Positions 1 through 60,165 of a DNA stretch of 60,666 bases are shown piece by piece. The stretch comes from Thermoproteota archaeon (lineage in GTDB: Archaea > Thermoproteota > EX4484-205 > JAAOZP01): contig JAWBXT010000002.1 in the NCBI GenBank assembly GCA_038867695.1, positions 1 to 60,666 of the forward strand. The letters are read 5' to 3'. A program made the position numbers and the translations under genes. A model generated the notes under the pieces. The model was not told where the DNA came from and made no database searches. It saw nothing but the letters and a program-made list of their open reading frames with translations. Position 1 is the stretch's first letter. The number at the start of each line of letters is the position of its first letter.

Positions 1-954
1 TTGAAGATAGCCTATTTGAGGAGGGTTGAAAGGCTGTTTGGGCTGGCGTCGGAAGACATGACGCATAGGGAATGGTCGACTATGGCTAGGAAAATCGCAG
101 AGAGCTTCAGCCAGGGTGATGCTGGAGTATTACTGCTGCACGGCACTGACACGATGCACTACACCTCTGCAGCATTATCCTTCATGCTAAGAGGGTTGAA
201 TGCTCCAGTCGTACTGGTTGGCTCTCAAAGGTCTAGTGACAGGGGCTCTAGAGATTCTGATATGAACATAATATGCGGCCTCCATGCTGCTGCTAAAGCA
301 AACCTCGGAGAAGTCGTTGTATGCATGCATGCTGAATCAGGCGATACCTTCAACTATCTGATTAGGGGCACGAGAGTTAGGAAAATGCATTCAACTAGGA
401 GAGACGCCTTTAAGCCAATAAACTCTCTACCACTCGCAAAGGTTTGGCCAGACGGTAGGATTGAAATGATCACAGACAACTTCAGACCCCGGAGCAGAGA
501 GCCTCCCACCGTAGACGATGTCTTCGAGCCTAAGACCGCATTGGTAAAAGCATATCCTGGTTCAAGCCCTGAGATAATAGATTTCCTCATAGACAAGGGG
601 TATAGGGGAATAGTGATAGAAGGGACTGGTATGGGCCATGTTCCAACCGAGCCGTTGGATAAAAACCTATCATGGGTCCGTAGCATTAAGAGAGGAATAG
701 AAGAAGGTGTTTTCTTCGCAATGACTACACAATGTATATTCGGAAGGGTAAACCCGTACGTCTACAGGAATGCTAGGATAATGGCTAAACTGGGGGTTGT
801 GTATTGCGAAGACATGCTTAGTGAAGTGGCGTATGTTAAACTCGGGTGGCTCTTGGGTCATGGGTTTGATAACGATACTGTTAAGAAGCTGATGCTACAT
901 GACTTCGCCGGGGAAATGTCTGAGAGATCCCTATATTCAACCTACACGCTCTAG
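1..954 (+). CDS. gatD: Glutamyl-tRNA(Gln) amidotransferase subunit D (GatD), C-terminal asparaginase-like part; the 5' end lies outside the window
   Basis: ORF open from base 1. Asparaginase-fold motifs HGTDTM, VGSQRSSDR and RKMHSTRRDAF are typical of archaeal GatD. Confidence 0.85.
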   Translation: MKIAYLRRVERLFGLASEDMTHREWSTMARKIAESFSQGDAGVLLLHGTDTMHYTSAALSFMLRGLNAPVVLVGSQRSSDRGSRDSDMNIICGLHAAAKANLGEVVVCMHAESGDTFNYLIRGTRVRKMHSTRRDAFKPINSLPLAKVWPDGRIEMITDNFRPRSREPPTVDDVFEPKTALVKAYPGSSPEIIDFLIDKGYRGIVIEGTGMGHVPTEPLDKNLSWVRSIKRGIEEGVFFAMTTQCIFGRVNPYVYRNARIMAKLGVVYCEDMLSEVAYVKLGWLLGHGFDNDTVKKLMLHDFAGEMSERSLYSTYTL

Positions 955-3157: not shown

Positions 3158-4175
3158 ATGGGCTAAGCTTTTCGCACTCCTCTCAGGAGAACACGACAGG
3201 CTTCCCTTTGCTGAGCTAGAGGGGGCTCTTGAAGCAGAGAATGTTCCGAAGAATGTTCTTGAACCGTTAATCCAGGTTTACAGGTTTGAAGCGCCATTAG
3301 AACCTGCTTTAAGAGCATTCCGAAGGCTAGCCCTATCCCATTTCTTATACGAGGAGTTTTGCATACTGGAAAGGGGTGTTTCCGACAGTGAAGTAATCGA
3401 CTCTGTTTCAAGGAGGTGTCTCACCGGGAGTGTTGCTTTTAGAGTTAGGAGGGTCAGAGGTAGTCTCACTCCAGAAGAATCCGCCGACCTAGAGAGGAGG
3501 CTCAATGCTAAAGCTAAGAACACCGGATTACTCGTAGATTTGGAGAATCCTGAAAGCCTCATAGAGGTAATTGTCTCAGGAAGCTTTCTCTTAGTCGGTA
3601 AGAGAATTTGCTCTAGCGATAGACGTAGGGTGTTTTCAAGAAGTGGGGGCACTAAACCTTTCTTCCACCCCTCTAGCTTAAAGGCAGAGCTTGCCAGGGC
3701 AATGCTTAATCTTGCAAGAGTTAGGAAAGGCAGCATAATATTAGATCCATTCTCCGGTACGGGGACAATCCTCGTTGAGGCTTATGAGCTTCAAGCAATA
3801 CCGGTGGGACTGGAGATCGATCCTGCGATGGCCTACCCCTCCATCAGAAACTATAAATGGTTTGGAGCAGTTGGGGTTTGCCAAATACTGGGAGATGCGG
3901 GACACATGCCTTTTAGAAGCGTAGACGCTATTGTTACGGATCCTCCTTACGGGAGGAGGGCTTCAACACACGGCTTAGAATCGTTGAAGGTTTACAAAGG
4001 GTTTATAAAAAGCGCGGCTGGTGTACTTCGTGAAAGTGGCTGGATGGTCTTCCTCGCTCCAAGTGGAATGCCGGTTGAAGACTTTGTAGAGTCTAATGGC
4101 CTTAGAATCATGGAAACATATTTTATAGAGGTCCATTCGAGTCTTACCAGAAAGCTATTGGTGGCGAGAAATTGA
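3158..4175 (+). CDS. tRNA (guanine-N2)-methyltransferase, Trm11/Trm-G10-like (THUMP-like N-domain + SAM MTase); the start codon is 1 nt out of frame
   Basis: Frame 0 is open from 3126 and encodes KLFALLSGEHDRLPFAELEGAL..., LDPFSGTGT (SAM motif I) and VTDPPYG (motif IV). There is no ATG/GTG/TTG in that frame before 3540, and the ATG at 3158 is offset by one G. Confidence 0.75.
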
Positions 4176-5098
4176 GGAAGACTCTTCCCTTCGGAAGGCT
4201 TTTCCTATTGGGAACGTCTGCGGCAGTTCCGACTCCTAGTAGGAGTCATCCTTGCATAGCCCTATGGTGGAAGGGTGAGACAATACTATTCGATTGCGGA
4301 GAGGGGGCTCAGAGGCAGTTGATGATTGCTGGTTTAAGCATTGAGAAGATTTCAAACATATTCATAACACACATGCATGGAGACCACGTCCTCGGCCTCC
4401 CAGGTTTGTTAATGACGATGAGCCTTCAAAACAGGAGAAGTCCTCTTAGAATATTCGGTCCAAATGGACTCAGGCAATTCATAGAATCATGTTTACCAAT
4501 GATATTTCATCAGCCGACTTTCCCTCTTGATATTCAGGAATTTGTAGGGAACGTTTTAGTTACATCTGGTAAGAACTATAAGGTTTACTCGTATTGCGTA
4601 AAACATTCGATAGAATCGTATGCGTATTGTTTCAAAGAGGACGATAGGCCTGGAAAATTCAATGTTGAGAAGGCTGAGGAACTAGGAATCAAACCAGGAC
4701 CATTGAGGAGCATGCTTATCAGAGGAGAGTCGGTTAGGCTTAAAAACGGTAGGGTAATCAAGCCGGAGGAAGTCGTAGGCCCTCCCAGACCTGGAGTTAA
4801 GATAGTGTATACGGGCGATATGGGGAATACTCCTGGCTTTGAAGAGTTTTGTCGGAATACAGATATTCTAATACACGAGGCTACTTTCGACGAATCAATG
4901 GATACTCAAGCAGACGAGTTACAACATTCAACATGTATAGAAGCTGCTAAGCTTGCTGCTAAAGCAGGTGTTAAAAGACTCATACTGACTCACATAAGCT
5001 CCAGGTATGGCGATACCTCCGTAATACTGGAGCAGGCTAAGAGATTTTTCAATAATGTTCAAGTCGCTGAAGACTTCATGTCTATCGATATTTTCTAG
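4172..5098 (+). CDS. rnz: Ribonuclease Z (tRNA 3' endonuclease)
   Basis: Metallo-beta-lactamase motif HMHGDHVLGLPGLL, N-terminal LGTSAAVPT, about 300 aa. Start overlaps the upstream stop (TTGA). Confidence 0.9.
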   Translation: MRKTLPFGRLFLLGTSAAVPTPSRSHPCIALWWKGETILFDCGEGAQRQLMIAGLSIEKISNIFITHMHGDHVLGLPGLLMTMSLQNRRSPLRIFGPNGLRQFIESCLPMIFHQPTFPLDIQEFVGNVLVTSGKNYKVYSYCVKHSIESYAYCFKEDDRPGKFNVEKAEELGIKPGPLRSMLIRGESVRLKNGRVIKPEEVVGPPRPGVKIVYTGDMGNTPGFEEFCRNTDILIHEATFDESMDTQADELQHSTCIEAAKLAAKAGVKRLILTHISSRYGDTSVILEQAKRFFNNVQVAEDFMSIDIF

Positions 5099-5637
5099 AG
5101 AATCTCCTGAAGTTTCTTCAAAGTTTTTTCCTTAAGATCTTCTAGGCTACTTTCATTCAACACGTAAACATCGCTTAAGGCAATTACCCCACCCACTCCA
5201 ACTGAAATTTCAACCCTGTCTCTCTCCTCAAGCTCTTTAATCACTTTAGAGTCATCTGGCCTATTCCTATTTGAAAGCCTACTGTACCTTAGTCTTATTG
5301 GCGATAATACTCCTACCGTGGTTACAGAATAGCCCTTTGACTTGAAATATTCAACCTCTTTCAGAGATCTGACACCATCTACGATTATTACATCGCCCTC
5401 TATTTTCTCTATCTTCCTATCGACGAGCATTGCAACAGCATTCTCACCGAGTTCTCTCCTCAGTTCAATCATAAACTTACTCATTTCGATTATATTCTTA
5501 CTCAAACCACGTGCCTCTGCCTCCTCTCTGACAGCATCTCCCATCGACACGATTGGAAAACCTCCTTCACCCATTATCTTGGCGACAGTAGTCTTTCCAG
5601 AACCGGGCATTCCTGTTATAAGTATTAGGTGTTTCAA
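5095..5637 (-). CDS. P-loop nucleotide kinase-like protein (UPF0200 / dephospho-CoA-kinase-like)
   Basis: Walker A GMPGSGKTT right after the start, LKHLILITG. The TTG at 5637 (or 5640) lies about 25 nt downstream of a TATA. The longer track ORF runs into the divergent thpR gene. Confidence 0.7.
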   Translation of the reverse strand: MKHLILITGMPGSGKTTVAKIMGEGGFPIVSMGDAVREEAEARGLSKNIIEMSKFMIELRRELGENAVAMLVDRKIEKIEGDVIIVDGVRSLKEVEYFKSKGYSVTTVGVLSPIRLRYSRLSNRNRPDDSKVIKELEERDRVEISVGVGGVIALSDVYVLNESSLEDLKEKTLKKLQEIL

Positions 5638-5658
5638 CAAACTCTGCAATAGCGATAA

Positions 5659-5669
5659 GGTATATAAAC
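5659..5669. promoter_or_regulatory. Shared, near-palindromic TATA element (GGTATATAAAC) between divergent genes
   Basis: It lies about 25-30 nt from both the TTG at 5637 (minus strand) and the ATG at 5693 (plus strand) in a 55-bp intergenic region. Confidence 0.35.
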
Positions 5670-5692
5670 CATATCCTTGAAATAATTGGGAA

Positions 5693-6244
5693 ATGGTCAG
5701 AGTCTTCGTCTCATTAGACATTGAAGACGACAGTATAGGTAATAGGGTGTCTGAAATACAGAGGAGAATGGTTGAGACCCGTGCAGACTTGAAGCTTGTA
5801 GACACTAAGATTCTCCACATGACTCTGTTCTTCATAGGCGAGATTCACGAGAGTATGGTCAATGAACTATGCAGAGTCCTTTCTAGAGTTGAAGGACGTC
5901 CAGTGGAGATAGAACTCCGGGGACTTGGAGCATTCCCTACGGTCTCACAACCTAGAGTAGTATTTGCAAAAATCAATAAGGGTGCCGATAAGATCGTTGA
6001 CAGGGCTGGAAAGGTTTCTGAAGCTTTGTCAAGCCTTGGTTTAAGGATGAGTGAAGAGTTTTCTCCTCATATAACCTTGGCAAGAGTTAGGAGTCGTATT
6101 GGTGTCGATAAGCTTATAATGTTCATTAAAGATAATTCGGATATTCTCATCGGCGAAACCGTTACCAGTAGGCTTAGGCTCAAGAAGAGCATACTTACTC
6201 CCAAGGGGCCCATATATGAGACCCTCTGGGAAAAAATTGATTAA
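5693..6244 (+). CDS. thpR: RNA 2',3'-cyclic phosphodiesterase / 2'-5' RNA ligase family (2H phosphoesterase)
   Basis: Two HxT motifs (HMTLFF and HITLAR), about 180 aa. Confidence 0.85.
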   Translation: MVRVFVSLDIEDDSIGNRVSEIQRRMVETRADLKLVDTKILHMTLFFIGEIHESMVNELCRVLSRVEGRPVEIELRGLGAFPTVSQPRVVFAKINKGADKIVDRAGKVSEALSSLGLRMSEEFSPHITLARVRSRIGVDKLIMFIKDNSDILIGETVTSRLRLKKSILTPKGPIYETLWEKID

Positions 6245-6266
6245 TAAGCCTCGATGATTATAATCT

Positions 6267-7679
6267 ATGTCAGATAGTCTTCAAGAGGTTATTCAAGAGG
6301 TTTTAAGGAGAACCAAGCCAAGCATAGAAGAAAGAAACCATATGAACAATGTTCTCTCTAAGGTTGTTTCAAAGCTTCAAGAAGAGTTTAAGAATATTGA
6401 ACCCGAGGCGGATGTGCTTATCCAAGGTTCAGTAGCTAAGGATACTTGGTTAAGTGGAGAGACAGATGCCGATGTTTTCGTAAGATTTCCAATAAAATGG
6501 AAGAAGGATGAAATGGGTAGGAAATTGATAGATTATGTCAAGAGGGTTTTCGGCCCTGAGAGGTGTAGACTAAGATTTGCAGAACACCCTTATGTAACAG
6601 TCAGAATCGAGGGGATTAATGTAGACATTGTGCCGTGCTACAGGGTCAATAAAGGGGAGTATAGAAGTGCCACTGATAGGACTGTTTTTCACACGGAATT
6701 TATCAGGGAAAAGCTTAGTCCAGAAATGAGGGATGAAGCGCGTCTTCTGAAAAAGTTCTTCAAGGGCATAGGGGTATACGGTGCTGAGATAAAGACAAGA
6801 GGGTTCAGCGGCTTCTTGGTTGAGCTTCTAGTATACTCGTTAGGTGGATTCAAAGGAACACTTGAAAAACTGGTGTCTTTCAAGCCTCCTCTAATACTTG
6901 ATCCAGGTGAGTTGTACAAGGGTAGGGAAGAGGAATTGTACAGAAAGGCACGGGATAGTCTGATTTGCGTAATAGACCCTGTGGATGAGCTTAGGAATGT
7001 TGCTGCAGCTGTGAGTGGAGAGAGTCTGAGCATAGCGCAATACGCATCGTATCTAATGCTTAAGAAACCATCTGTTAAATTCTTCTACCCCACTCACAAG
7101 GCTTCTAAAGAGGAAATTAGGGAAATAGTGAGAAGCAGAGGGTTGAACATGTTTTCAATAACGATACCTGCTTGGACAGTTATCCCAGATATTCTATGGG
7201 GGCAAGCGTACAGGCTTCTCTCTAGGATCAGCATATTCCTTGAAGAAAACGAGTTTAGAGTCTTAATGAATAAGGTTTGGAGCGACGAGGAGAAGAACGT
7301 AGTATTACTGTTTATATTAGAGGAAGTTGAGAAGAGAGCGGCGGTCTTACATATGGGTCCTCCGTATTTCAGCAATAATGTTCCTATATTCATCGAAACA
7401 TATTTGAATAATGAGAGGACATTAGTACAGCCGTTTCCTAGAAATGGAAGATGGTGGACAATATTAAAGCCCAAGGCGAGGGATGTAAGTGAAGCTTTCT
7501 CCAAGGCGCTTTCGTCAAAAGAATTTCTTAAAGGTTTTTCAGATAATATTTTGAAGGCGCTCTCTGAAAGCAAAATGTGTTACGGTGAGGATGTTGTTGA
7601 AGCCGTAGACAATGCTGGTTATCTATCTTTCTTAGAGAAAAATATTCACCCCTTCTCCTGGATGCTTAGAGAAGACTAG
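6267..7679 (+). CDS. cca: CCA-adding enzyme (archaeal class I tRNA nucleotidyltransferase)
   Basis: GSVAKDTWLSGETDADVFV nucleotidyltransferase motif, about 470 aa. The tRNA in this window does not encode CCA. Confidence 0.9.
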   Translation: MSDSLQEVIQEVLRRTKPSIEERNHMNNVLSKVVSKLQEEFKNIEPEADVLIQGSVAKDTWLSGETDADVFVRFPIKWKKDEMGRKLIDYVKRVFGPERCRLRFAEHPYVTVRIEGINVDIVPCYRVNKGEYRSATDRTVFHTEFIREKLSPEMRDEARLLKKFFKGIGVYGAEIKTRGFSGFLVELLVYSLGGFKGTLEKLVSFKPPLILDPGELYKGREEELYRKARDSLICVIDPVDELRNVAAAVSGESLSIAQYASYLMLKKPSVKFFYPTHKASKEEIREIVRSRGLNMFSITIPAWTVIPDILWGQAYRLLSRISIFLEENEFRVLMNKVWSDEEKNVVLLFILEEVEKRAAVLHMGPPYFSNNVPIFIETYLNNERTLVQPFPRNGRWWTILKPKARDVSEAFSKALSSKEFLKGFSDNILKALSESKMCYGEDVVEAVDNAGYLSFLEKNIHPFSWMLRED

Positions 7680-8394: not shown

Positions 8395-8484
8395 TCCTAG
8401 GATTATATGGCTAAACTTAGACTTAAAAACAATATGGAAAAGGCTTTATACTTCCTGCTTTAAAAACCCGTGTGTGAAGCGAGG

Positions 8485-9515
8485 ATGCTTACAGTAATAG
8501 TGTCAGGATTCTTCGGCGACGAGGGAAAACCTTCAAAGGGTCCCTAGAAGGAAAAGTCGCCGCGTTCCTGGCGCTTAGGGAGCGTCCGAAGGTAGCTGTT
8601 CGAGTTGGTTCTGTAAATGCTGGACACACAGTGATTTATAGGGGGAACACGTATAGGCTTAGGATGGTGCCGAGTGCTTTTCTCGTTCCAGAAACAAAGC
8701 TCCTGATAGGAGCTGGTGCGAATGTTGATCCAAAAGTCCTCTTAAGCGAGATTGCCATGTTGGGTGTAGAAGGCAGGGTGTTTGTCGACGGGAATGCATC
8801 AGTAATTGAACAGAGGCACATAGATGCAGATAGGGGGAACGATTTCTTCAGGGAATTCATAGGTACTACTGGAACCGGGGTTTCTCCTGCTCTCGTCGAT
8901 AGAGTAGCTAGAAAAGCAAAGCTTGTAAGAGATACCCCTGAGTTAAGCAAGTATGTTACAGACGTTTCTGAAGAAGTTAATTCTGCTCTAGATAGGGATG
9001 AGACCGTACACATTGAGGGGACACAGGGCTTCTACCTAAGCCTCTACCATGGGACATACCCATATGTTACGGGTAGGGATACTACTGCTGCAGCCGTCTG
9101 TAGCGAAGTAGGAGTCGGTCCAAAAAGAGTGGATGAAGTAATACTTGTTCTCAAAAGCTTTGTAACGAGAGTAGGTAATGGACCATTGGATAATGAGCTT
9201 TCTCCTGAAGAAGCCGAGAGAAGAGGATTTGTGGAAAGAGGCACAGTCACAGGTAGGCTTAGGAGGGCTGCACCCTTCAACTTCCAGATGGCTAAGCGTG
9301 CATGCAGGGTTAACGGAGCAACTCAAATAGCTGTAACTAAAGTGGATGTACTTTTCCCAGAATGTTCCAAAGCTAAGAATAGAGGATCCTTGTCTGAAAG
9401 GTGCTTGGAATTCCTTAAGAGGGTTCAGGATGAAACCGGCGTACCCGTAACTATAGTTGGCACCGGTCCCGATGCTGAGGACACTATATATCTTGGTCCC
9501 GAGGGAGTAAAGTAA
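8485..9515 (+). CDS. purA: Adenylosuccinate synthetase (short archaeal type), interrupted by a 20-nt insert at 8528-8547
   Basis: Exon 1 encodes MLTVIVSGFFGDEGK and exon 2 encodes GKVAAFLALRERPKVAVRVGSVNAGHTV...TTGTG...TKVD. Joined length is 336 aa and regenerates the GDEGKGK P-loop. Confidence 0.8.
8528..8547 (+). other. Candidate bulge-helix-bulge (BHB) intron inside the purA mRNA
   Basis: Central helix AGGG 8522-8525 / CCCT 8542-8545. 3-nt bulges at 8526-8528 and 8546-8548. Inner hairpin 8529-8533 / 8537-8541. Distal helix GGCGAC 8515-8520 / GTCGCC 8556-8561. Confidence 0.55.
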
Positions 9516-19200: not shown

Positions 19201-19308
19201 GGGGTCGTCGTCTAGAGGCTAAACCAGGCAGCTTGGTCTAGGATACCAGCCTGAAGCAAGAACTGGCTAAGGGCGCTGGCGACCTGGGTTCAAATCCCGG
19301 CGACCCCA
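19201..19308 (+). tRNA. Intron-containing tRNA, best read as tRNA-Pro(GGG) with two BHB introns (19216-19231 and 19254-19270); the alternative reading is Phe(GAA)
   Basis: Acceptor GGGGTCG/CGACCCC plus A73. T-arm CTGGG-TTCAAAT-CCCGG. Anticodon stem CCAGC/GCTGG. The 108-nt gene is about 33 nt too long. No CCA is encoded. Confidence 0.8.
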
Positions 19309-19794: not shown

Positions 19795-21054
19795 ATGAAT
19801 GATTCGCCCTACCGTTTTAGCCCCTTCAATATTAGTGATGGAGATAGGCATTACGTGGAGCAGATAATGCTCGACGTGAAAGAGAGAGGTGATGAGGCGC
19901 TTATAGACTACACTTCTCGTCCCAAGCCTTTTGACAATGTTAAACTATCGAAGGATGTGATTGCAGTTAGCCAGGATGAATTAGAGAATTCTGAAAAATA
20001 TTTGTCAAAAGACGTTGAGGAGGCAATACTTTTCATGATGAGTAGGATTAGGAAAGTGGTTAATTTGCAGATGAAAATATTGTCGATAAACACGCTTAAG
20101 AACGAGGGTTTTAAATATCATATAAGGTTCTATCCGCTCGAAAGAATCGGAGTGCTTGTACCCGGAGGGAAAGCGCCTTATGTTTCAACTATAGTTATGG
20201 CAGCTTATCCAGCTGTTCTAGTAGGTGTTAAGGAAATCCATGTTATAACTCCCCCCAGACAGGATGGTTCCGTGAATCCAGCGGTTCTTTATGCTGCTAA
20301 ACTAATGGGCTTGAAAAGGGTTTATAGGTGCAACATGGTTGCCGGTGTCGGTGCATTAACCTTCGGTACCCAGACTATTCCTAGGGTGGAGAAGATAATT
20401 GGCCCGGGGAACAGGTTTGTAACTTTGGCAAAGATGATTGCAACCAGTTATGGTGTCTCTATTGACATTCCTGCAGGACCATCAGAACTTGTTGTATTAG
20501 CAGATTCTAATGCAGATCCTAAATTCGTAGCCTTAGATCTGGTTGCCCAAGCAGAGCATTCACCAGATTCTTTTGTAGCTTTAATTACCGACTCTAAATC
20601 CTTAGCCGAATCCGTTGAAAAAATATTCCAAGAGTTTTCAAAGAAATACGGCTTGGAGGCGAGAATGAATACGTATTTGGTTCAATCCATAGAAGAAGGT
20701 TTAGAAAAATGCAACTCCCTCGCTCCTGAACACGTTTCCCTCCAAGTTAGAAATCCAAATAGGCTGTTGAGTAAACTTACAACAGCTGGTACTGTTTTCC
20801 TTGGGGGCTTTTCGCCACCAGCGGTAGGAGATTACGTGTCAGGAAGCAACCATATTCTCCCAACGGGCGGATACGCTAGGGTGAGAGGCGGCGTGACGGT
20901 GCTCGACTATCTCAGAATAGTTTCATACCAATATTTCTCTATCAAATACTTGAATAGGGTTGCTAAGTATGTTAATACCTTAAGTAAGGTGGAAGGGCTT
21001 CCTCTTCATGGGATGAGTGTAGAGTCTAGGATTAAGAGGAAGATAACAGTATGA
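19795..21054 (+). CDS. hisD: Histidinol dehydrogenase
   Basis: GPGNRFV, AQAEH, APEH...; about 420 aa. No other his genes are nearby. Confidence 0.85.
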   Translation: MNDSPYRFSPFNISDGDRHYVEQIMLDVKERGDEALIDYTSRPKPFDNVKLSKDVIAVSQDELENSEKYLSKDVEEAILFMMSRIRKVVNLQMKILSINTLKNEGFKYHIRFYPLERIGVLVPGGKAPYVSTIVMAAYPAVLVGVKEIHVITPPRQDGSVNPAVLYAAKLMGLKRVYRCNMVAGVGALTFGTQTIPRVEKIIGPGNRFVTLAKMIATSYGVSIDIPAGPSELVVLADSNADPKFVALDLVAQAEHSPDSFVALITDSKSLAESVEKIFQEFSKKYGLEARMNTYLVQSIEEGLEKCNSLAPEHVSLQVRNPNRLLSKLTTAGTVFLGGFSPPAVGDYVSGSNHILPTGGYARVRGGVTVLDYLRIVSYQYFSIKYLNRVAKYVNTLSKVEGLPLHGMSVESRIKRKITV

Positions 21055-21824
21055 AAGCCATCTTCCTAATAGGCACTGCAGGAAGTGGTAAAACTACCTT
21101 CGTAAAAAACTTTTCCGAATGGATTGAGAATAAAGGTGTTGACGTTGCGAGAATCAATTTGGATCCTGGTGTAATCAGTCTGCCCTATACTGCTGACTTC
21201 GATGTTAGGGAGTATGTTAGTACTGAGAAGATTATGAGAGATCTTGGGCTAGGACCTAACAGCGCCTTAACTGTCGCTTCAGACTTGATAGCAGTAAAGG
21301 TTCATGAGATTAGCGATGAGATCGAAGCAATGGATTATGAGATTGCTATTGTAGACACACCCGGTCAGATAGAGTTATTTGCCTTCAGGCCTGTTGGAAA
21401 GGTTTTCTCAGAAAGATTTTTAGAAGGCCCTAGGATGGTAATATACCTTTTTGACTATGCACTCATGCTTGAGCCACTTAGCTTTCTTGCTTCACTATAT
21501 CTTAGCTTATCTGTTTACGCATCCCTTACCATACCACAGCTTAACGTAATTAACAAAGTGGACATGGCGGAACCTCGCTTAGTCAAGAGAATAAGCGAAT
21601 GGTTCTCTAGCCCACTAACCCTCTATGAGGCTGTTAATAAATACTACAGGGGCGAGAAATTGAAACTAGGTCAAGAGCTTTCGAAAGCACTCCCCATATT
21701 GAGTAGTTTGAACAGGCCAATACCTGTTTCAGCAATAACAATGGAGGGCTTTGTAGATGTATACTCGCAGGTTACTAGAATACTTGGGACTGGTGAAGAG
21801 TTTGCACAGGAACAGGCCATTTAA
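21051..21824 (+). CDS. GPN-loop GTPase
   Basis: GTAGSGKTT P-loop, GLGPNSAL GPN motif, DTPGQIE, NKVD. Confidence 0.85.
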   Translation: MKAIFLIGTAGSGKTTFVKNFSEWIENKGVDVARINLDPGVISLPYTADFDVREYVSTEKIMRDLGLGPNSALTVASDLIAVKVHEISDEIEAMDYEIAIVDTPGQIELFAFRPVGKVFSERFLEGPRMVIYLFDYALMLEPLSFLASLYLSLSVYASLTIPQLNVINKVDMAEPRLVKRISEWFSSPLTLYEAVNKYYRGEKLKLGQELSKALPILSSLNRPIPVSAITMEGFVDVYSQVTRILGTGEEFAQEQAI

Positions 21825-26325: not shown

Positions 26326-26974
26326 TCTCCGACACTATGTAATATTCATCATCTTCTAAAAGAATGTCGAAACCAGGTTCAGACAATACGAAGAGTATCA
26401 ATATGAATGTTCTGGCTGCTTCAAGAGGATTTTTCCCCTCGATCAGGCATCTTACTAGAATCTTGCCTTTACCACGTATCAGTTTTAAAAGGCTCCTTCT
26501 AAACTCTTCAACCTTCTTCTCAATGTCTCTCATGAACTCGTCCTGTTGTGGGACTATTGGTGGCAAAGGCTCTTCTTCAAAAGGCTTTTTGGAATACTCT
26601 TTCTCCATTATCTGAAGAAGTGCTTTAACTAGTTGTTCCAGATCTATAACTGGTTGCGGAGGTCTGAGAGGAGCCTCCAAGGGGCTTATTCTATCAAGTG
26701 CCTCTAAAGGTATGTCTGAAGCCTCCTTGGCTTCCTCGTCACTCCTTTCTTCCTTAGGCTCGATTGATAAGAGGGACTCTGTCTTCCGAAGGTAAACTAT
26801 TGAAGAAGCCAATAGTAAAAGCCCTGAAAGAGTAAATTGCATATACCCTTTTTCACGTAATTCTCTAGATAGCTGTTTCAAGATGATTGATATTTTAATA
26901 TCCCATGGGTTAGCCTTCTTGAGTCTTATCAGGTCGAATATTAATTCAGATGCTTTAGGAGCCTCGTCCAGCAA
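26300..26974 (-). CDS. scpA: Segregation and condensation protein A (kleisin)
   Basis: LIRLKKANPWDIKISIILKQ..., C-terminal WHD (RTFILILFVLSEPGFDILLED). Overlaps the smc stop. Confidence 0.8.
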   Translation of the reverse strand: MLDEAPKASELIFDLIRLKKANPWDIKISIILKQLSRELREKGYMQFTLSGLLLLASSIVYLRKTESLLSIEPKEERSDEEAKEASDIPLEALDRISPLEAPLRPPQPVIDLEQLVKALLQIMEKEYSKKPFEEEPLPPIVPQQDEFMRDIEKKVEEFRRSLLKLIRGKGKILVRCLIEGKNPLEAARTFILILFVLSEPGFDILLEDDEYYIVSENGFEGIGV

Positions 26975-29900
26975 CAGCTATCTCCTCTAAAGCCTTCTCA
27001 CTCGGCATCTCCATAAATCTCGACGAACCTTTCTTAACATATACCCCTATAACCTTGTCAGCCTTACTAACGACAACATCTCTAAGCGATATTACTATCA
27101 TTTGACTGTCTTTAGAAACTTCTTTAAGGAGGTCAGTCATCCTATCGATATTAACGTAATCTAAATGTGCATCCGGTTCGTCGAAAATGTAGAATGCTGC
27201 TGGAAAGAGCTTCTGCATCGCAAAGACTAAGCAGAGTGCCGCAACTGATTTTTCTCCCCCACTTACTCCGCTTATTACTCTAGCCTCCTTACCCGGAAAC
27301 TTGACATAAACGTTTAAGCCTGTTTCAAGAGGATTCTCAGGGTCCTCGGGCTGAAGCCAACCTTCTCCGCCAGTCATTTTATTGAAAAACATTGAGAAAT
27401 AACTATTTATTTTATTTAAGCCATCTAGAAAAGCCTCTCTCTTCCTCCTTTCAATATCATCCATGAACTCTTGGATGCTTCTCCTCTCTTCCTCAAGCTC
27501 GTTAATCCTTTCAAGAGCATTTCTGTAAAAATCGATTTCCTGTTCGTATTGCTTTATGGCGAGCATATTTACTTCCTGAACTTTCTCAAGCTCGCTTTTG
27601 AGAATACTCAGATATCTCTCCACGGGAACTCTCATCTCCTCCGGCACATGGGGCGGCTGACCCATTATCTTATTCCTCAACTCCGTAAGCCTGTTCTCAT
27701 TTACCTCCTTTTCAACCAAGAGCTTTATCTCAGCATCTTTGGCTTTGCTAATCTCTACATTCAACAATTCAGCTTTTTCATCTAGTTTACGTATGGCTTC
27801 AACTAGCTTACTTTGTCTATCTAAATTCTCCTCGTTTTCCTCACCCTTCTTTGTCATTAGTAATTCGATTTTGCTTCTAAGATTGTTTATCAGATCTGTA
27901 GAGCTTTTTATTTCCCTCTTAATACTAAAAATCTTACCAGCTAGCTTTTCCTCGACTGTCTTATACTCCTCTACCTTTCTACGCAGGGTATTAATAATGT
28001 TCTCAATTTCTATTAAACTCCTTTTGATTCGTATTTTTTCACTGCTCAGTTTATCTGATTCTGCCTCAAGCAATCTTATTTTCTTACGAATAGTCCTTAC
28101 TTTTCTCTCTCTTAAAACTATTGAAGACCTCAATCTCAGCGATTCCTTTTCAAGCGAACGTTTTTTGCTAGAATCGCGTTCTCTGAACATTTGATTAAGT
28201 TTCTTGGAGGTCGACAGGTATTCCTCAGCTAGAATTTTCAACTGCTCTTCTAACTTGTTCATGTGTAAATCGATGGCATTCAACTCATTTTCAAGTCTGT
28301 TCCGAAACTCTGAAGCCTCAAGCATTTTCTTATTTAAAGAACGCTTTATATATGCCTCCACTATCTCGATTGTCCTTGATAATTCTCCAGCCTTCTCGGT
28401 AAAACTATTCATGAATTTAAGGAGGTTCCCAAATTCTTTATTGCTATCTTCGGGTATTGAAGCACCCTCATTCGTGAAGACCTGCCCATCTGGAGTCACT
28501 GCTTTGAAACCATTCTTTGCGAAAAGCAGAGCGTCCTCGACACTATTTACTAGAATACTATTCCAGAATATTTTTAAAACGTGTTTTTCAATGCTCTTAG
28601 GATACTTAAGTAAATCCATCATATGCGTACCTCGTCCATTAAGCTTAACGGGCACCTCTTTTCTGGAAACACCCCCCTCAGATGTTAACACTTTGACACC
28701 GACATTTTTTTCTACAAGCAGGTTCATTAATACCAGCATATCAAACGAATTCTCAACCAAAATGGAATCTATCCATTCGCCAGCTAAACTTTCAACAGCC
28801 TTCCTAAAGTTCTCCGGAAACCAGAGGTTTTTCCTTAGAGTCCCATAGACTCTTAAACCTTTTTCTTCTAACCTTCTCTCTACAAGCTCTAATACCGTCT
28901 CCTTATCCTTTCTACTCTTGTAACTTAAAACACCAGATGTTTTTGCAAAGAAAATCCTGAAAGTATCTAGACTTTCAGTGAGAACCTCAAGTGTATTAAT
29001 AATATTGCTAAGCGTCTTTCTCCTCTCTGCCAGAACCTCTTCAAGGTCAGTTAATCTTTCTACAACTCTTCTCCTTCTAGCATCTCTTTTACTTCTTGCC
29101 TTGTTTAAAGCAATTATCCTTCTCTTAATACTTTTATAATGATTTAAAATATCTTTTAACACTTTCTCAGAATCCTTTTCCTCCATAATGGTCTTTTCTA
29201 ATTCTTTTTCAACTATAGTTAGCCTATTTCTAAGCTGAGAAATCCTTTCCATTTCCTGTTTCTCGATTTCCTGCAGCCTTCTCTTCTCATTCGAGATCCT
29301 AGAAAGTAGGTTATCAATTAAAGAGTTCTTGCTTAAAATTACGTTTAGAACTCCCAATAATCGTTTCGTCTTTCTTCTTGCTCTGTACTTTCTATTTTTC
29401 ACTCTTTGAAACTCTTTCTTAAGTGCATCTAGTTCCTCTTTCCTCTCATCCACTTTCCTCAAACATTCGCCGAGCTGTCTTTCATAATCTCTGATTTCAT
29501 ACTCGATTCTAATTCTTTCTGAATCGCCGATTGAGGATGCAGCTTTAAGTAGTTCTTCAGTTCTCTCCATTAGTTTTTTCTTATCCGATTGTACTTCAAC
29601 AAGCTCAGTTTCAAGCCTTTTTCTCAAGGCATGGTTCTCTCCAATCAGTTTAGAAATATCATTAAGTTTACCTACAAGCCTCCAGTATTCAAGCGAGTCT
29701 ATGATAAGTTGTATTTTTTCAACCTCTTTTTCAAGCATCTTCCTTCTCAAAAGGAGGTTTCTCTCCCTTTCTAATTGAAACATCCTTCTATCTATCTCTT
29801 GGAGCCTAGCTTGTGCAACTCTGAGATTATTGTCTGCTTGTTGCAGATTGTTAAGAGCTTCTGCTTTTTTCTCATCGTATTGAGCTAGGCCGAGTGCCTG

Positions 29901-30860
29901 TTCAATCTCCTTTCGTCTCTCAACTGGATTCTTGTCGGCAAGCCTTGATATTTCTCCCTGAAGAATGATATTATATCCTCTAGCCGAGAGACCTGCTGTA
30001 GATATTATGTCTTCAATAACGTTTCTAGGAGTCCTCCTGCCATTGAGGTAATAGGTGCTCTCCCCATCGCGCCCCATCCTTCTAGTTATTGTAATGATTT
30101 TATCCTGACCAGGGATAACAGAATCGCTATTGTCTATGGTTACCCTAACATATGCCTCCGCATCCCTTCCAGCATTATCGTTAACTAGGGATGAAAGCCT
30201 ATCAGTCCTAAGTAGCCTAGGGTTGTTCTCTCCTAACGCGAAGCGTATTGCATCCACCAAATTACTGTTGTGAACTATTACTCCATTTCCAATGATATAT
30301 GATCCAATACCCTTTACATAAAGGTCGTAAACAAATCCTACCCATCGCTTCTCCACGATCCTATCCAAGACATCGGCAATTATTCTCCCGTTTTCAAAAA
30401 CCAGTATTCTGCTACCCAGCGGTAGACTCGATGCTTTAACCCATCTTAACTCATTTCCAGAAGCCACTGCTATCTTATGTTCTGGAGTAACTTCGATAAC
30501 TCTTCCTGATAGGGTTGTAAGCTTCAAAAGCTGCCCCTCGTAAGTCTTCCTAAATAGAGCGCTAATACTGGTTTCCAAACACTTATTTAAGCATCTATAA
30601 TAACTTAGAAGCATCTCTTTATCATAGGGGACTACATACTCCAATCCCCGTTCGCGAATCCTTAAGCCGTTAGAGCAAACATCTCGGAAAATAGCTTCTA
30701 TACTTCTCTCTCCCCAAGGCTGGGCCACGGGCATCCAGGGTGCAATACACTTGCCTGAGCCATTTCTACCGGTCAGGACCGTCAACCCCTTGCTCAGGCT
30801 TATTACTTGCCGGTCCAGTATAGATTTGAAATTTCTTATCTCAATCTTGGTAAGGTGCAA
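26955..30860 (-). CDS. smc: Chromosome partition protein SMC, carrying a mini-intein in the Walker A loop
   Basis: Head IEIRNFKS...GRNGSGK|intein|SNLVDAIRFALG, long coiled coils and a hinge. C-terminal signature SGGEKS and Walker B FYIFDEPDAHLD. 1301 aa including 161 aa of intein. Confidence 0.9.
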   Translation of the reverse strand: MHLTKIEIRNFKSILDRQVISLSKGLTVLTGRNGSGKCIAPWMPVAQPWGERSIEAIFRDVCSNGLRIRERGLEYVVPYDKEMLLSYYRCLNKCLETSISALFRKTYEGQLLKLTTLSGRVIEVTPEHKIAVASGNELRWVKASSLPLGSRILVFENGRIIADVLDRIVEKRWVGFVYDLYVKGIGSYIIGNGVIVHNSNLVDAIRFALGENNPRLLRTDRLSSLVNDNAGRDAEAYVRVTIDNSDSVIPGQDKIITITRRMGRDGESTYYLNGRRTPRNVIEDIISTAGLSARGYNIILQGEISRLADKNPVERRKEIEQALGLAQYDEKKAEALNNLQQADNNLRVAQARLQEIDRRMFQLERERNLLLRRKMLEKEVEKIQLIIDSLEYWRLVGKLNDISKLIGENHALRKRLETELVEVQSDKKKLMERTEELLKAASSIGDSERIRIEYEIRDYERQLGECLRKVDERKEELDALKKEFQRVKNRKYRARRKTKRLLGVLNVILSKNSLIDNLLSRISNEKRRLQEIEKQEMERISQLRNRLTIVEKELEKTIMEEKDSEKVLKDILNHYKSIKRRIIALNKARSKRDARRRRVVERLTDLEEVLAERRKTLSNIINTLEVLTESLDTFRIFFAKTSGVLSYKSRKDKETVLELVERRLEEKGLRVYGTLRKNLWFPENFRKAVESLAGEWIDSILVENSFDMLVLMNLLVEKNVGVKVLTSEGGVSRKEVPVKLNGRGTHMMDLLKYPKSIEKHVLKIFWNSILVNSVEDALLFAKNGFKAVTPDGQVFTNEGASIPEDSNKEFGNLLKFMNSFTEKAGELSRTIEIVEAYIKRSLNKKMLEASEFRNRLENELNAIDLHMNKLEEQLKILAEEYLSTSKKLNQMFRERDSSKKRSLEKESLRLRSSIVLRERKVRTIRKKIRLLEAESDKLSSEKIRIKRSLIEIENIINTLRRKVEEYKTVEEKLAGKIFSIKREIKSSTDLINNLRSKIELLMTKKGEENEENLDRQSKLVEAIRKLDEKAELLNVEISKAKDAEIKLLVEKEVNENRLTELRNKIMGQPPHVPEEMRVPVERYLSILKSELEKVQEVNMLAIKQYEQEIDFYRNALERINELEEERRSIQEFMDDIERRKREAFLDGLNKINSYFSMFFNKMTGGEGWLQPEDPENPLETGLNVYVKFPGKEARVISGVSGGEKSVAALCLVFAMQKLFPAAFYIFDEPDAHLDYVNIDRMTDLLKEVSKDSQMIVISLRDVVVSKADKVIGVYVKKGSSRFMEMPSEKALEEIAVAGRGS
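30267..30749 (-). mobile_element. Mini-intein (161 aa, no homing-endonuclease domain) in the SMC P-loop
   Basis: Begins with Cys (CIAPW), has block B TPEH and ends in VIVHN followed by the +1 Ser. Removing it restores GSGKSNLVDAIRFALG. Boundary codons were checked at nucleotide level. Confidence 0.85.
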
Positions 30861-53430: not shown

Positions 53431-54003
53431 TTATTCTCTTACTTGTTTCATTATCCTGTAGATTACTGGTGTAGCTAAAGGAAAGAAAAATGCATTGGAA
53501 ACCTCATGAATTAATCCCATGGGCATGGGGAAATTCATTGTAAGCAACCCCATAATAATGGATCCGTAAAAAATATATCCGACAAAACTGTTTGTTATTA
53601 TGTCATAAATAAGAGTCGAGAAAAATCCTAATGAACTAAGAAATAGGGAATCATGGAAGCTTATTTTATCCCATTGTGATTTCACGCTTGAAGCAATTTT
53701 AGAGAAGAGAACATAAACCATCTCGCTAAGAGTGACTACTATCAAAGTTGGCAGACTGAAGCCCAAAGGATTTAAAGTTCCGTAAACTATCCATATGATT
53801 ATTGCTAGAGTTGCTCCAAACTTTACTCCCATTACGAGGCTGGATGCGAAGATTATAACGTCCATAAGCTTAACGTTTGGAAAGCCTAGTAGAACGTAGT
53901 TTGAAGAAAGAGCTAAAGCTGATAGCAGTGATAATAAAGCAACGCTTCTCGTAAACATTTTAGACTTCTCGAGCTTTTCGTTCATCATGGATATTTTATC
54001 CAA
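53431..54003 (-). CDS. ECF-transporter S-component-like membrane protein
   Basis: About 6 TM helices. Adjacent to a DUF4430 gene, a common pairing. Confidence 0.5.
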   Translation of the reverse strand: MDKISMMNEKLEKSKMFTRSVALLSLLSALALSSNYVLLGFPNVKLMDVIIFASSLVMGVKFGATLAIIIWIVYGTLNPLGFSLPTLIVVTLSEMVYVLFSKIASSVKSQWDKISFHDSLFLSSLGFFSTLIYDIITNSFVGYIFYGSIIMGLLTMNFPMPMGLIHEVSNAFFFPLATPVIYRIMKQVRE

Positions 54004-59015: not shown

Positions 59016-59438
59016 TTGCTTATTTTTGCGATTTTGTCGGAGGAACTAAAGAGGGTGCTTTCGGAAATCCAGAATTCCCTATGCTCACTAACGTTTTCGA
59101 TGAGAAAGTATATCGACAATGGTTTAGAGGGTAATATTGATGGTATTGACGATTTAGGGCAGAGCTTTATTTCGCTTGCAGACCGTTTCAGGAGTCAGCT
59201 TAAAGAATTGAAACACACAGTCTTATCACTAACTCTTATGGAGGCTGGTGTAAGTATAAGAGGAAGAGTGAAGAAAATGAGGAGGAAAGGGGTATCAACA
59301 GATGACATCGTGTTTTTTGAGGAAGTCTATTCTCTGGTGAAACTTATTGAAGACAGTATCGCTTCCGGAGAATATTATGAAGAGCTTGTAAAAATATACC
59401 GGAATAAGCTTACCGAAGATCTCCACACTCGCATATAG
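59016..59438 (+). CDS. Hypothetical helical protein (140 aa)
   Basis: ORF only. TTG start, and it converges with and overlaps the next gene by 29 nt. Confidence 0.35.
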   Translation: MLIFAILSEELKRVLSEIQNSLCSLTFSMRKYIDNGLEGNIDGIDDLGQSFISLADRFRSQLKELKHTVLSLTLMEAGVSIRGRVKKMRRKGVSTDDIVFFEEVYSLVKLIEDSIASGEYYEELVKIYRNKLTEDLHTRI

Positions 59439-60165
59439 CATCATGTAAAATGGACTCTAATGATTCAAATCCTGTTCCAACAATGGCTGAAACAAAAACA
59501 GTTCTTTGCCTTCTAAGCATGGGATGGATAATCTTAGAATACTCTAACATATATTCCTGTAAAAGCCCGTCTTCTTCTTCAACGATCCTGTTTTCTAAAT
59601 AATCCAAATTCTGCATTAAGAGTTCCAGGTCAACCCTTCCCAATGCGTCAGCCTTAGTGACTACGTGGACGAGTGGAACGTTTAATCTCAACCTACATGC
59701 TGTTGCCAGTGAGAACATTGCTATGAGATCGCTTGGACAACGTATTAGTTGACCGTCTATCAAAAACACTATTATCGTTCTACCTATTCTAGAAAGACTC
59801 TTAACAATCTCCGGTCCCGTATTTCTGAATACGAACAACTCGCTCTGGCCGGGAGTATCTATAAGCCTGTAATCTGCTTGGAAAGATTCTATCTTAGAGG
59901 TTAATTCACAGCTTTTTTCAGCTAATATGTCCATAGCCCTTATCATGGCCCCGTTTGGCCCCAGCCTTTCCCTCCTCATTATTTCCTCGACGGTAAAGAA
60001 TTCTCTAATATCAAATGATGGGGAGTATGGTACTTCTTCAACTCCGGGATCAAGGTTTACAAAGGAGATTTTCTGTCCACTTGAGCTAAGCCATTCCCCA
60101 TACTTACCGACTAAAGTCGTCTTTCCTGAACCAGCTGGACCTATGAAAACTATTTGCATCACCAT
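59410..60165 (-). CDS. GPN-loop GTPase (second paralog)
   Basis: GPAGSGKTT, RLGPNGAMI, DTPGQSE, TKAD. Confidence 0.85.
   Translation of the reverse strand: MVMQIVFIGPAGSGKTTLVGKYGEWLSSSGQKISFVNLDPGVEEVPYSPSFDIREFFTVEEIMRRERLGPNGAMIRAMDILAEKSCELTSKIESFQADYRLIDTPGQSELFVFRNTGPEIVKSLSRIGRTIIVFLIDGQLIRCPSDLIAMFSLATACRLRLNVPLVHVVTKADALGRVDLELLMQNLDYLENRIVEEEDGLLQEYMLEYSKIIHPMLRRQRTVFVSAIVGTGFESLESILHDAICECGDLR

Follow-up and report, generated by a model that had tools for sequence, protein, structure and literature searches.

The purA locus and its interrupted frame

The 60,666-nucleotide (nt) stretch analyzed here (contig JAWBXT010000002.1 of the Thermoproteota archaeon assembly GCA_038867695.1, positions 1 to 60,666 of the forward strand), which we call the window, carries purA, the gene for adenylosuccinate synthetase (AdSS), with its reading frame broken inside the phosphate-binding loop (P-loop). 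The ATG at 8485 opens MLTVIVSGFFGDEGK, continues with PSKGP and ends at a TAG stop codon (8545–8547), and the remainder of AdSS (GKVAAFLALRERPK...) is encoded in a different frame, from GGA at 8550 to TAA at 9513–9515. When 8528–8547 were deleted, a single open reading frame (ORF) of 336 amino acids (aa) with the P-loop motif GDEGKGK resulted, and deletion of 8529–8548 or 8530–8549 gave the same product, which belongs to family PF00709 in Pfam. No second AdSS was found in the 60-kb window. A preliminary description of this DNA had reported the start, the TAG, the two frames, the 20-nt deletion with its equivalents and the 336-aa product, and all of these coordinates were reproduced. It had also proposed that the 20 nt are a candidate bulge-helix-bulge (BHB) intron of an archaeal mRNA. 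Based on the comparisons described below, we consider it highly probable that 8528–8547 is a BHB intron of the purA pre-mRNA. The features of the locus are as follows.

8423–8451 (+): upstream block with the TATA-like sequence TTTATA (8445–8450), about 35 nt 5' of the ATG; near-identical in the window and loci L001, L006 and L141, while the flanks diverge
8485–8527 (+): predicted purA exon 1 (MLTVIVSGFFGDEG plus the first base of Lys15); no synonymous differences at 61 sites in six pairs of four intron-bearing relatives
8528–8547 (+): predicted 20-nt BHB intron with the in-frame TAG at 8545–8547; removal rebuilds the frame and GDEGKGK; homologous inserts of 17–30 nt in at least 117 loci
8548–9515 (+): predicted purA exon 2 (last two bases of Lys15, then GKVAAFLAL... 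to TAA at 9513–9515); PF00709; ratio of nonsynonymous to synonymous divergence (dN/dS) 0.03–0.075
8483–8520 (+): 5' halves of the predicted exon-exon helices (8483–8490, including the AUG; 8499–8508; 8514–8520); minimum free energy (MFE) z = −4.62; substitutions in loops or neutral to pairing; synonymous change suppressed
8556–8587 (+): 3' halves of the same helices (8556–8562; 8566–8575; 8580–8587) in the MFE fold; analogous clamps in other clades
8522–8525 (+): 5' strand of the predicted central BHB helix, AGGG, in the exon (Glu and Gly codons); pairs with 8542–8545; the first pair covaries between A-U and G-C among lineages
8542–8545 (+): 3' strand of the central helix, CCCU, in the intron; pairs with 8522–8525
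8526–8528 (+): 5' bulge AAA with predicted cleavage at 8527|8528; AAA in all 60 distinct sequences compared
8546–8548 (+): 3' bulge AGA with predicted cleavage at 8547|8548; A-N-A throughout (AGA, AAA, AUA or ACA)
8529–8541 (+): predicted inner intron hairpin h' (ACCUU/AGGGU, loop CAA; 5 base pairs (bp), 8529–8533 with 8537–8541); a hairpin in every lineage, with unrelated stem sequences and compensatory changes in the three closing pairs

The upstream block probably acts as the promoter of purA, in which case the 5' untranslated region (UTR) would be very short. The predicted spliced junction reads ...GAGGGAA|AAGGAAAAG..., with 8527 joined to 8548, and the predicted junction peptide is ...FFGDEGKGKVAAF..., for example as VIVSGFFGDEGKGK / GKVAAFLALR.

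The two 3-nt bulges listed above stand on opposite strands at the exon-intron boundaries with a 4-bp helix between them, and the strand arrangement is the same as in transfer RNA (tRNA) introns. The 105-nt region 8483–8587 folds at −44.4 kcal/mol (z = −4.62; none of 200 shuffles was equally stable). This stability is due to three exon-exon helices around the core, which pair 8483–8490 with 8580–8587, 8499–8508 with 8566–8575, and 8514–8520 with 8556–8562. The helix, bulges, inner hairpin and distal GGCGAC/GUCGCC helix given in the preliminary description were all recovered, the last of these being longer in the MFE fold (8514–8520/8556–8562). The claim that the RNA fold predicts the same 20 nt stands in so far as the BHB-constrained fold lies within 0.8 kcal/mol of the optimum (−45.0 vs −45.8), but the optimum itself adds a fifth pair, A8526-U8541. 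Likewise, the 4-bp helix and 3-nt bulges of the claimed motif hold, and its class is refined to a relaxed HBh' BHB, in which h' is adjacent and the outer helix h is distal, so that the 3' bulge is closed by the distal exon-exon clamp.

A search of 8400–8700 against Rfam at a permissive threshold returned no known RNA family. When the two strands of the window were scanned for BHB motifs in general (12–70 nt, with 3-nt bulges, a 4-bp helix and a hairpin of 3 bp or more), the result was unspecific, with 872 and 833 matches vs 805–852 in shuffled sequence, and the ORF-joining filter of the scan missed purA because the exon-2 frame is open upstream. A pattern derived from purA, GGGAAA-N(9-24)-CCCYANA, matched three times in the window vs 0.3 expected. 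The two further matches, at 911–935 (+) and 53528–53554 (+), have no contiguous inner hairpin and were judged to be due to chance; the latter lies outside any plus-strand gene.

Distribution and conservation of the insert

The nearest relatives of the spliced protein belong to 'Candidatus Brockarchaeota' and to Thermoproteota/Nitrososphaerota metagenome-assembled genomes (MAGs). A 20-nt insert was present at the identical site in two species-level relatives, JZZ.bins.4 (92% aa identity) and CAZTSG01 (87%), and GDEGKGK was uninterrupted in five further genomes of the window's group (about 80% identity). In JZZ.bins.4 and CAZTSG01 the helix and bulges are identical to those of the window, and changes are confined to the hairpin (U-G to U-A, and the loop) and the base 3' of the 3' bulge. 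Many of the protein-search matches were 304–317 aa long and without the N-terminus. Three such truncated matches were fetched, and at this site the gene of a Kamchatka Thermoproteota MAG had an insert of 17 nt and those of sediment contigs had one of 22 nt.

We then scanned metagenome contigs with the flanking codons fixed as F-[FW]-G-D-E-G-K ... G-K-[VI], 12–42 nt between them left free and the content of the insert ignored. This yielded at least 120 loci, of which 8 unrelated ones were removed and about 110 are true purA. Together with the loci fetched earlier, the scan matches listed form a comparative set of at least 117 purA loci, or 60 distinct sequences. Same-site P-loop inserts thereby occur in at least four lineages from hot spring, sediment and soil, namely Brockarchaeota, Bathyarchaeota, Methanomethylicaceae/Methanosuratincola and other Thermoproteota, where clade names are the labels given by the sources to the N-terminally truncated proteins. 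Insert lengths are 17, 18, 20, 21, 22, 23, 28 and 30 nt. The 23-nt soil type is that of Candidatus Bathyarchaeota (TMI37791.1) and makes up more than half of the metagenome matches listed, and the 28–30-nt type is that of Candidatus Methanomethylicaceae, Methanosuratincola sp. included. Intronless genes about 70–90% identical to the intron-bearing ones occur in the Bathyarchaeota and Methanomethylicaceae clades as well, and in a neighbor-joining tree, which is indicative only as it is built on one protein, intron-bearing and intronless genes are mixed in two of the three intron-containing clades. The predicted purA intron is thus not peculiar to the window genome; it is widespread. Among its further carriers are the MAG GCA_049970795.1 and the soil Bathyarchaeota contigs L086 and L128. 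Bathyarchaeia-like archaeal purA genes were also found on two contigs of MAGs with bacterial labels, L053 (DASQZS010000240, labeled Candidatus Acidoferrum) and P0136 (labeled Candidatus Dormibacteraeota), the intron of P0136 being read through in another frame; both probably reflect binning contamination of public MAGs.

A spurious 20-nt insertion introduced by sequencing or assembly would be conceivable for a window that probably comes from a metagenome assembly. However, the product of the window gene in the public protein collection, a 315-aa protein that begins downstream of the P-loop, is present in identical form on 4 contigs, which rules out a single misassembly. Identical or variant inserts are moreover found in independent NCBI, JGI, ENA and Logan assemblies from many samples, which makes the chance of an artefact virtually negligible. 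The recurrence of the same interruption across independent assemblies and lineages, together with the three pattern matches vs 0.3 expected, indicates a feature that is more than chance.

All 60 distinct sequences could be parsed as [A/G]GGG, an AAA bulge, a hairpin of 3–9 bp, CCC[U/C/A] and an A-N-A bulge. The preliminary description had placed the cuts after the second bulge nucleotide, as in tRNA introns, and this rule rebuilds GDEGKGK in the window and in 60 of 60 homologous sequences, across eight insert lengths and two phases. The hairpin stems differ wholly between lineages (ACCUU/AGGGU, GCU/AGC, GGC/GCC, GCGG/CCGC, GACGA/UCGUC, GGUGCCCGC/GCGGGCGCC and others). For the covariation analysis, 6 exon nt, helix, bulge, the 3 closing hairpin pairs, helix, bulge and 6 exon nt were aligned with the apical hairpin parts cut away, and 28 distinct rows were kept. 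In this alignment 98.5% of cells are paired and compensatory changes occur in 4 of 7 pairs, with double substitutions in all three hairpin pairs and in the outer central pair (A-U 16, G-C 8, G-U 1, mismatch 3). The covariation score was 0.478 vs 0.14 ± 0.02 in shuffled alignments, none of 500 shuffles reaching the observed value, and sliding the partners by 1–3 columns lowered pairing to 36–69%. Hence, it is structure rather than sequence that is conserved.

The position of the predicted intron is shifted by 1 nt between clades and tracks the Gly codon, GGA or GGG. Brockarchaeota-like clades have phase 1 (GAG GGA A|AA, with the helix starting from the second Glu base), and Bathyarchaeota and Methanomethylicaceae have phase 2 (GAR GGG AA|A, with the helix starting from the third Glu base). 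This difference points to sliding of the intron or to separate gains. Almost all clades have predicted exon-exon clamps. In the three clades tested (Bathyarchaeota, Methanomethylicaceae and the 21-nt clade) these are conserved; they use different codons (FFG/ALKD, GGFF/KIAA and WGD/DRP) and are invariant or change from G-C to G-U only.

Selection on the gene bears on whether purA might be a decaying pseudogene or a tolerated disrupted copy with an incidental fold. The frame is indeed broken in the DNA, and gene callers give only the N-terminally truncated products of 304–317 aa. Against this, dN/dS over exon 2 is 0.03–0.075 among intron-bearing relatives, with a proportion of synonymous differences (pS) of up to 0.72, and is indistinguishable from that of an intronless pair (L002/L003, 0.035). 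Exon 1 is conserved, the structure of the insert covaries, the window holds no other AdSS, and one clean interruption has been kept in the at least 117 loci and four lineages without any other lesion. Neither relaxed selection nor accumulating lesions, the further decay that would mark a pseudogene, was found, and this explanation is extremely improbable.

Synonymous differences in the window's clade, summed over six pairs among four intron-bearing relatives, number 0 at 61 sites in codons 1–15 and 8 at 73.5 sites in codons 16–30, with divergence of 0.40–0.76 in the remaining gene. The few substitutions in 8483–8600 fall in predicted loops or change U8501-G8573 to U-A. In the intronless sister clade, synonymous divergence is normal in the same two blocks (0.35 and 0.32), which links the constraint to the intron and not to the 5' end itself. 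A similar dip is seen in the Bathyarchaeota, Methanomethylicaceae and 21-nt clades, where codons 10–16 were partly fixed by the scan pattern, so that this part of the dip includes ascertainment. The same-site inserts, the covarying core and the purifying selection together support the candidate intron of the preliminary description.

Predicted splicing, its alternatives and its surroundings

In the proposed mechanism, exon AGGG (8522–8525) would pair with intron CCCU (8542–8545) once transcribed. The intron hairpin (8529–8541) would stack on this central helix, and about 25 bp of exon-exon pairing (8483–8520 with 8556–8587) would clamp the opposite side, so that two 3-nt bulges, 4 bp apart, are offered to the archaeal splicing endonuclease EndA. 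EndA would cleave each strand after the second bulge nucleotide (8527|8528 and 8547|8548), and the tRNA ligase RtcB would join the exons. The canonical excision would give a functional mature sequence in the window, the 336-aa ORF, and the spliced mRNA would encode full-length AdSS with an intact GDEGKGK loop. On unspliced RNA, the stop inside the intron would end translation after about 20 aa. EndA cleavage, RtcB ligation and any regulatory role are steps that we infer.

The inserts fall in all three residues modulo 3. Of the distinct inserts, 18 have a length divisible by three, and each of these includes a stop in frame; most others have a stop within the intron or no more than about 10 codons past it, so that unspliced RNA almost never encodes AdSS with a peptide inserted in the P-loop. 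These conserved stops may be selected or may be a by-product. In the 30-nt introns of Methanomethylicaceae (L090, L104, L110, L117, L124, L137, L143, L161, L167, L174, L177, L204), a UAG in a UAGCG context is fixed in frame in the hairpin loop while its neighbors vary.

The same lengths and stops weigh on translational recoding, by which a frameshift, or a ribosomal hop across the 20 nt of the kind known from phage T4 gene 60, would give full-length AdSS from the unspliced mRNA. In its favor, the insert is of small size, the last exon-1 codon is followed by a stop and a hairpin, GGA AAA stands on both sides in superficial resemblance to the take-off and landing sites of gene 60, and cbf5 introns were formerly mistaken for frameshift sites (PMC2738675). 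However, with inserts of 0, 1 or 2 modulo 3, including 18, 21 and 30 nt with in-frame stops, no single shift works, and one constant slip of +1 or −1 at a slippery site could not join the two frames. Matched take-off and landing codons are likewise missing: the codon before the second GGN is GAA/GAG, AGA, AUA or ACA, which leaves a peptidyl-tRNA-Lys without a cognate landing codon, and a Gly-to-Gly hop would give GDEGKV, with GK deleted and the P-loop lost. Neither frameshift nor bypass needs a covarying 4-bp helix with 3-nt bulges, and we regard recoding as highly improbable.

EndA might also cut and leave the exons unligated, either for mRNA decay or regulation as in TSEN-initiated decay in yeast, or with the truncated protein as the real product. 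Endonuclease-only outcomes are known in yeast (PMC10485636), and ligation in purA is a prediction from sequence. Such a product would, however, have no GDEGKGK and thus not the GTP phosphate loop that defines the family, whereas exon 1 is conserved with all of its P-loop codons, and the canonical cut followed by ligation always rebuilds the motif in frame. A truncated product is further opposed by the exon-2 frame, which has no ATG, GTG or TTG between the stop at 8496–8498 and 8631. Cleavage without ligation is therefore very unlikely. A split protein was rejected as implausible, since it would divide the P-loop and since the exon-2 frame offers no start codon upstream of 8631. Further split genes were considered at the ORF pairs 32017/32390, 35677/36338 and 25765/26300/26955 and rejected, as Pfam assigned them to unrelated families, that is, to ordinary neighbors.

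Several points weigh against splicing as a BHB intron. It is predicted from DNA and protein sequences. The 3' bulge has no adjacent exon-exon helix, with about 7 nt to the distal one, which is what makes the motif relaxed, and relaxed motifs are reported to require an (alpha-beta)2 endonuclease, with the crenarchaeal loop, or an epsilon2 one (PMC6379350). One clade with CCCA (L083-L085, L096, L107, L114, L116, L162 and others) has an A-A mismatch at the outermost central pair, beside the 3' bulge; its insert, if spliced, is an even more relaxed substrate. Pfam searches on about 60 ORFs found no EndA, RtcB or Cbf5 in the 60-kb window, the first two being the enzymes that splicing would need. 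Among the full-length proteins of the searched collection, none was above 90% identity to an intron-bearing gene, a level that would suggest an assembled spliced transcript; the best full-length match is 90% identical, and its partner may be a truncated call. The structure contains the start codon, and its folding would face competition from ribosomes that load while the transcript is still being made. Finally, the parse of the 60 sequences was guided by the BHB model and the covariation alignment was fitted to it, although the requirement to rebuild GDEGKGK fixes the intron boundaries to within the ambiguity of the A-run and leaves the parse little freedom.

With these points taken into account, the reading of the insert as a BHB intron is supported as the only one that accounts for all comparative data. 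At the sequence level, the purA insert is in agreement with the BHB-intron family, in its relaxed HBh' form, in every respect considered.

The only tRNA gene detected in the window lies at 19201–19308 (+) (Rfam, 41 bits) and is probably Phe-GAA, with the anticodon loop CUGAAG; ARAGORN found no tRNA in the window and missed it. The Rfam alignment places an intron-like insertion of about 20 nt in the D-loop, a non-canonical position, and another of about 17 nt in the anticodon loop; their BHB helices, parsed by hand, are imperfect. A tRNA with two insertions, one of them in the D-loop, is the pattern of archaea with broad-specificity endonucleases (PMC6379350), and by this analogy the insertions are a hint of such an enzyme in the window organism.

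Whether the purA intron is a conserved control point and not a passive passenger is a separate matter, and we consider a control function unlikely. AdSS is a GTP-consuming enzyme at the IMP branch point, and RtcB is GTP-dependent. AdSS production would be gated by the exon-exon clamp, in which the AUG of this genome is buried, and by the obligatory step of cutting and ligation. With RtcB as a GTP-dependent gating enzyme, splicing would tie AMP synthesis to the supply of GTP or to the capacity for RNA processing. Read-through products with a dominant-negative effect would be avoided through the in-frame stops. BHB introns may also be mobile, with repeated entry into the GAR-GGN-AAR coding sequence of the P-loop or sliding by 1 nt within it. 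The suppressed synonymous change, conserved stops, two phases and patchy distribution are compatible with a control point, and none of them demonstrates regulation.

A run of RNA-processing genes (3540–7679) lies just 5' of purA and includes an RNA methyltransferase (UPF0020), tRNase Z (4172–5098), a member of the LigT-like 2H phosphoesterase / 2'-5' RNA ligase family (5693–6244) and the CCA-adding enzyme (6267–7679). Enzymes of the LigT family act on ends with a 2',3'-cyclic phosphate, the type left by EndA, and the closeness to purA is probably a coincidence. In the SMC gene at 26955–30860 (−), of 1301 aa, a mini-intein of about 160 aa interrupts the Walker A motif (...GRNGSGK|CIAPW...GVIVHN|SNLVDAIRF...); in Pfam, Intein_splicing matches only weakly (28 bits, below cutoff), but the C...HN|S boundaries are classic. 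Two P-loop motifs of the window are thus interrupted, that of SMC at the protein level and that of purA, as predicted, at the RNA level. Two paralogous ATP_bind_1 genes (GPN-loop GTPase family) of near-equal length are located at 21051–21824 (+) and 59410–60165 (−).

Significance and comparison with known systems

The cbf5 pre-mRNA intron of Crenarchaeota was reportedly treated by Watanabe in 2002 and Yoshinari in 2006, and the archaeal hBHBh' and relaxed hBH and HBh' motifs are said to have been set out by Marck and Grosjean in 2003. Introns of cbf5 lie in the coding sequence, are 16–44 nt long, have a relaxed motif and are located within a catalytic-residue codon (Yokobori 2009, PMC2738675), and a BHB intron in the 5' UTR of HVO_1309 has been described in Haloferax volcanii (Schwarz 2020, PMC7714728). 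A 2023 review counts BHB mRNA introns in no fewer than two genes of archaea and states that others are still to be found (PMC10485636), and in a 2025 structural paper the cbf5 work is still the only such work cited. In the searched literature, which largely leaves out subscription journals, no paper combined adenylosuccinate or purA with bulge-helix-bulge or splicing endonuclease, and the description of Brockarchaeota does not mention introns. The statement in the preliminary description that coding BHB introns are established essentially only for cbf5 agrees with this literature, where cbf5 is the only coding case and the HVO_1309 5' UTR the only other one reported.

Since 2002, cbf5 has been the single case in which the tRNA-splicing machinery of archaea was shown to splice an intron in a coding sequence, and purA would be the second if RNA data confirm splicing. 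Endonuclease/ligase splicing of mRNA would then be neither a one-gene curiosity nor limited to Sulfolobales and Desulfurococcales, given that purA is a housekeeping metabolic gene with a predicted intron spread over Bathyarchaeota, methanogenic Methanomethylicaceae/Methanosuratincola, Brockarchaeota and other Thermoproteota. The system is directly testable, as it offers a base-exact junction prediction, natural variants of 17–30 nt, intronless sister lineages and possibly cultured hosts. It raises the questions of how splicing is reconciled with the coupling of transcription to translation, and why active-site codons host such introns. In public annotations, purA of these archaea appears as an N-terminally truncated protein without the P-loop (MEM3713020.1, TMI37791.1, MEM3039214.1), so that metabolic reconstructions can miscall the gene and intron-aware gene finding is needed.

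Among systems outside the archaeal BHB introns, the bypass of T4 gene 60 likewise spans a short untranslated gap within a coding sequence, and the gap opens with a stop and a hairpin, but purA has no matched take-off/landing pair, and its gap varies in length and sequence while the BHB is conserved. In HAC1/XBP1 splicing, IRE1 cuts the mRNA at two sites, tRNA ligase/RTCB joins the exons, and the frame change gives the active protein. The purA proposal shares with it a structure-specific endonuclease, two mRNA cuts, joining by a tRNA ligase and a frame change; HAC1/XBP1 differs in its endonuclease, IRE1, and its recognition stem-loops, and is eukaryotic and stress-regulated, and the purA intron is not a member of this class.

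With the BHB introns of archaeal tRNA and ribosomal RNA, purA has in common the 4-bp helix, the two 3-nt bulges, the predicted cut after the second bulge nucleotide, a 5'-exon strand that pairs with the 3' part of the intron, the hairpin h' and a size in the range of small tRNA introns. It differs in that the host is an mRNA without a mature tRNA body for recognition and that helix h is not adjacent to the 3' bulge. The HVO_1309 intron is a BHB intron of an mRNA as well and is cut by the splicing endonuclease, as is predicted for purA. It differs in being 46 nt long and in lying in an untranslated leader, where it leaves the reading frame intact, and its host is a euryarchaeon whose enzyme is of the alpha2 type.

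In size, motif type and placement in active-site codons, the predicted purA intron is closest to the cbf5 intron. Both are short coding BHB introns (16–44 nt in cbf5 vs 17–30 nt in purA) with a relaxed motif in the codons of a catalytic motif, both are present or absent among close relatives and have been mis-annotated or ignored, and some lengths of each are divisible by three. For purA, a long predicted exon-exon clamp and suppressed synonymous change are seen around the intron. The hosts differ, cbf5 encoding an RNA-modification enzyme in Sulfolobales and Desulfurococcales and purA an enzyme of purine biosynthesis in Brockarchaeota, Bathyarchaeota, Methanomethylicaceae and other uncultured Thermoproteota, and splicing has been demonstrated experimentally for cbf5, whereas for purA it is predicted.

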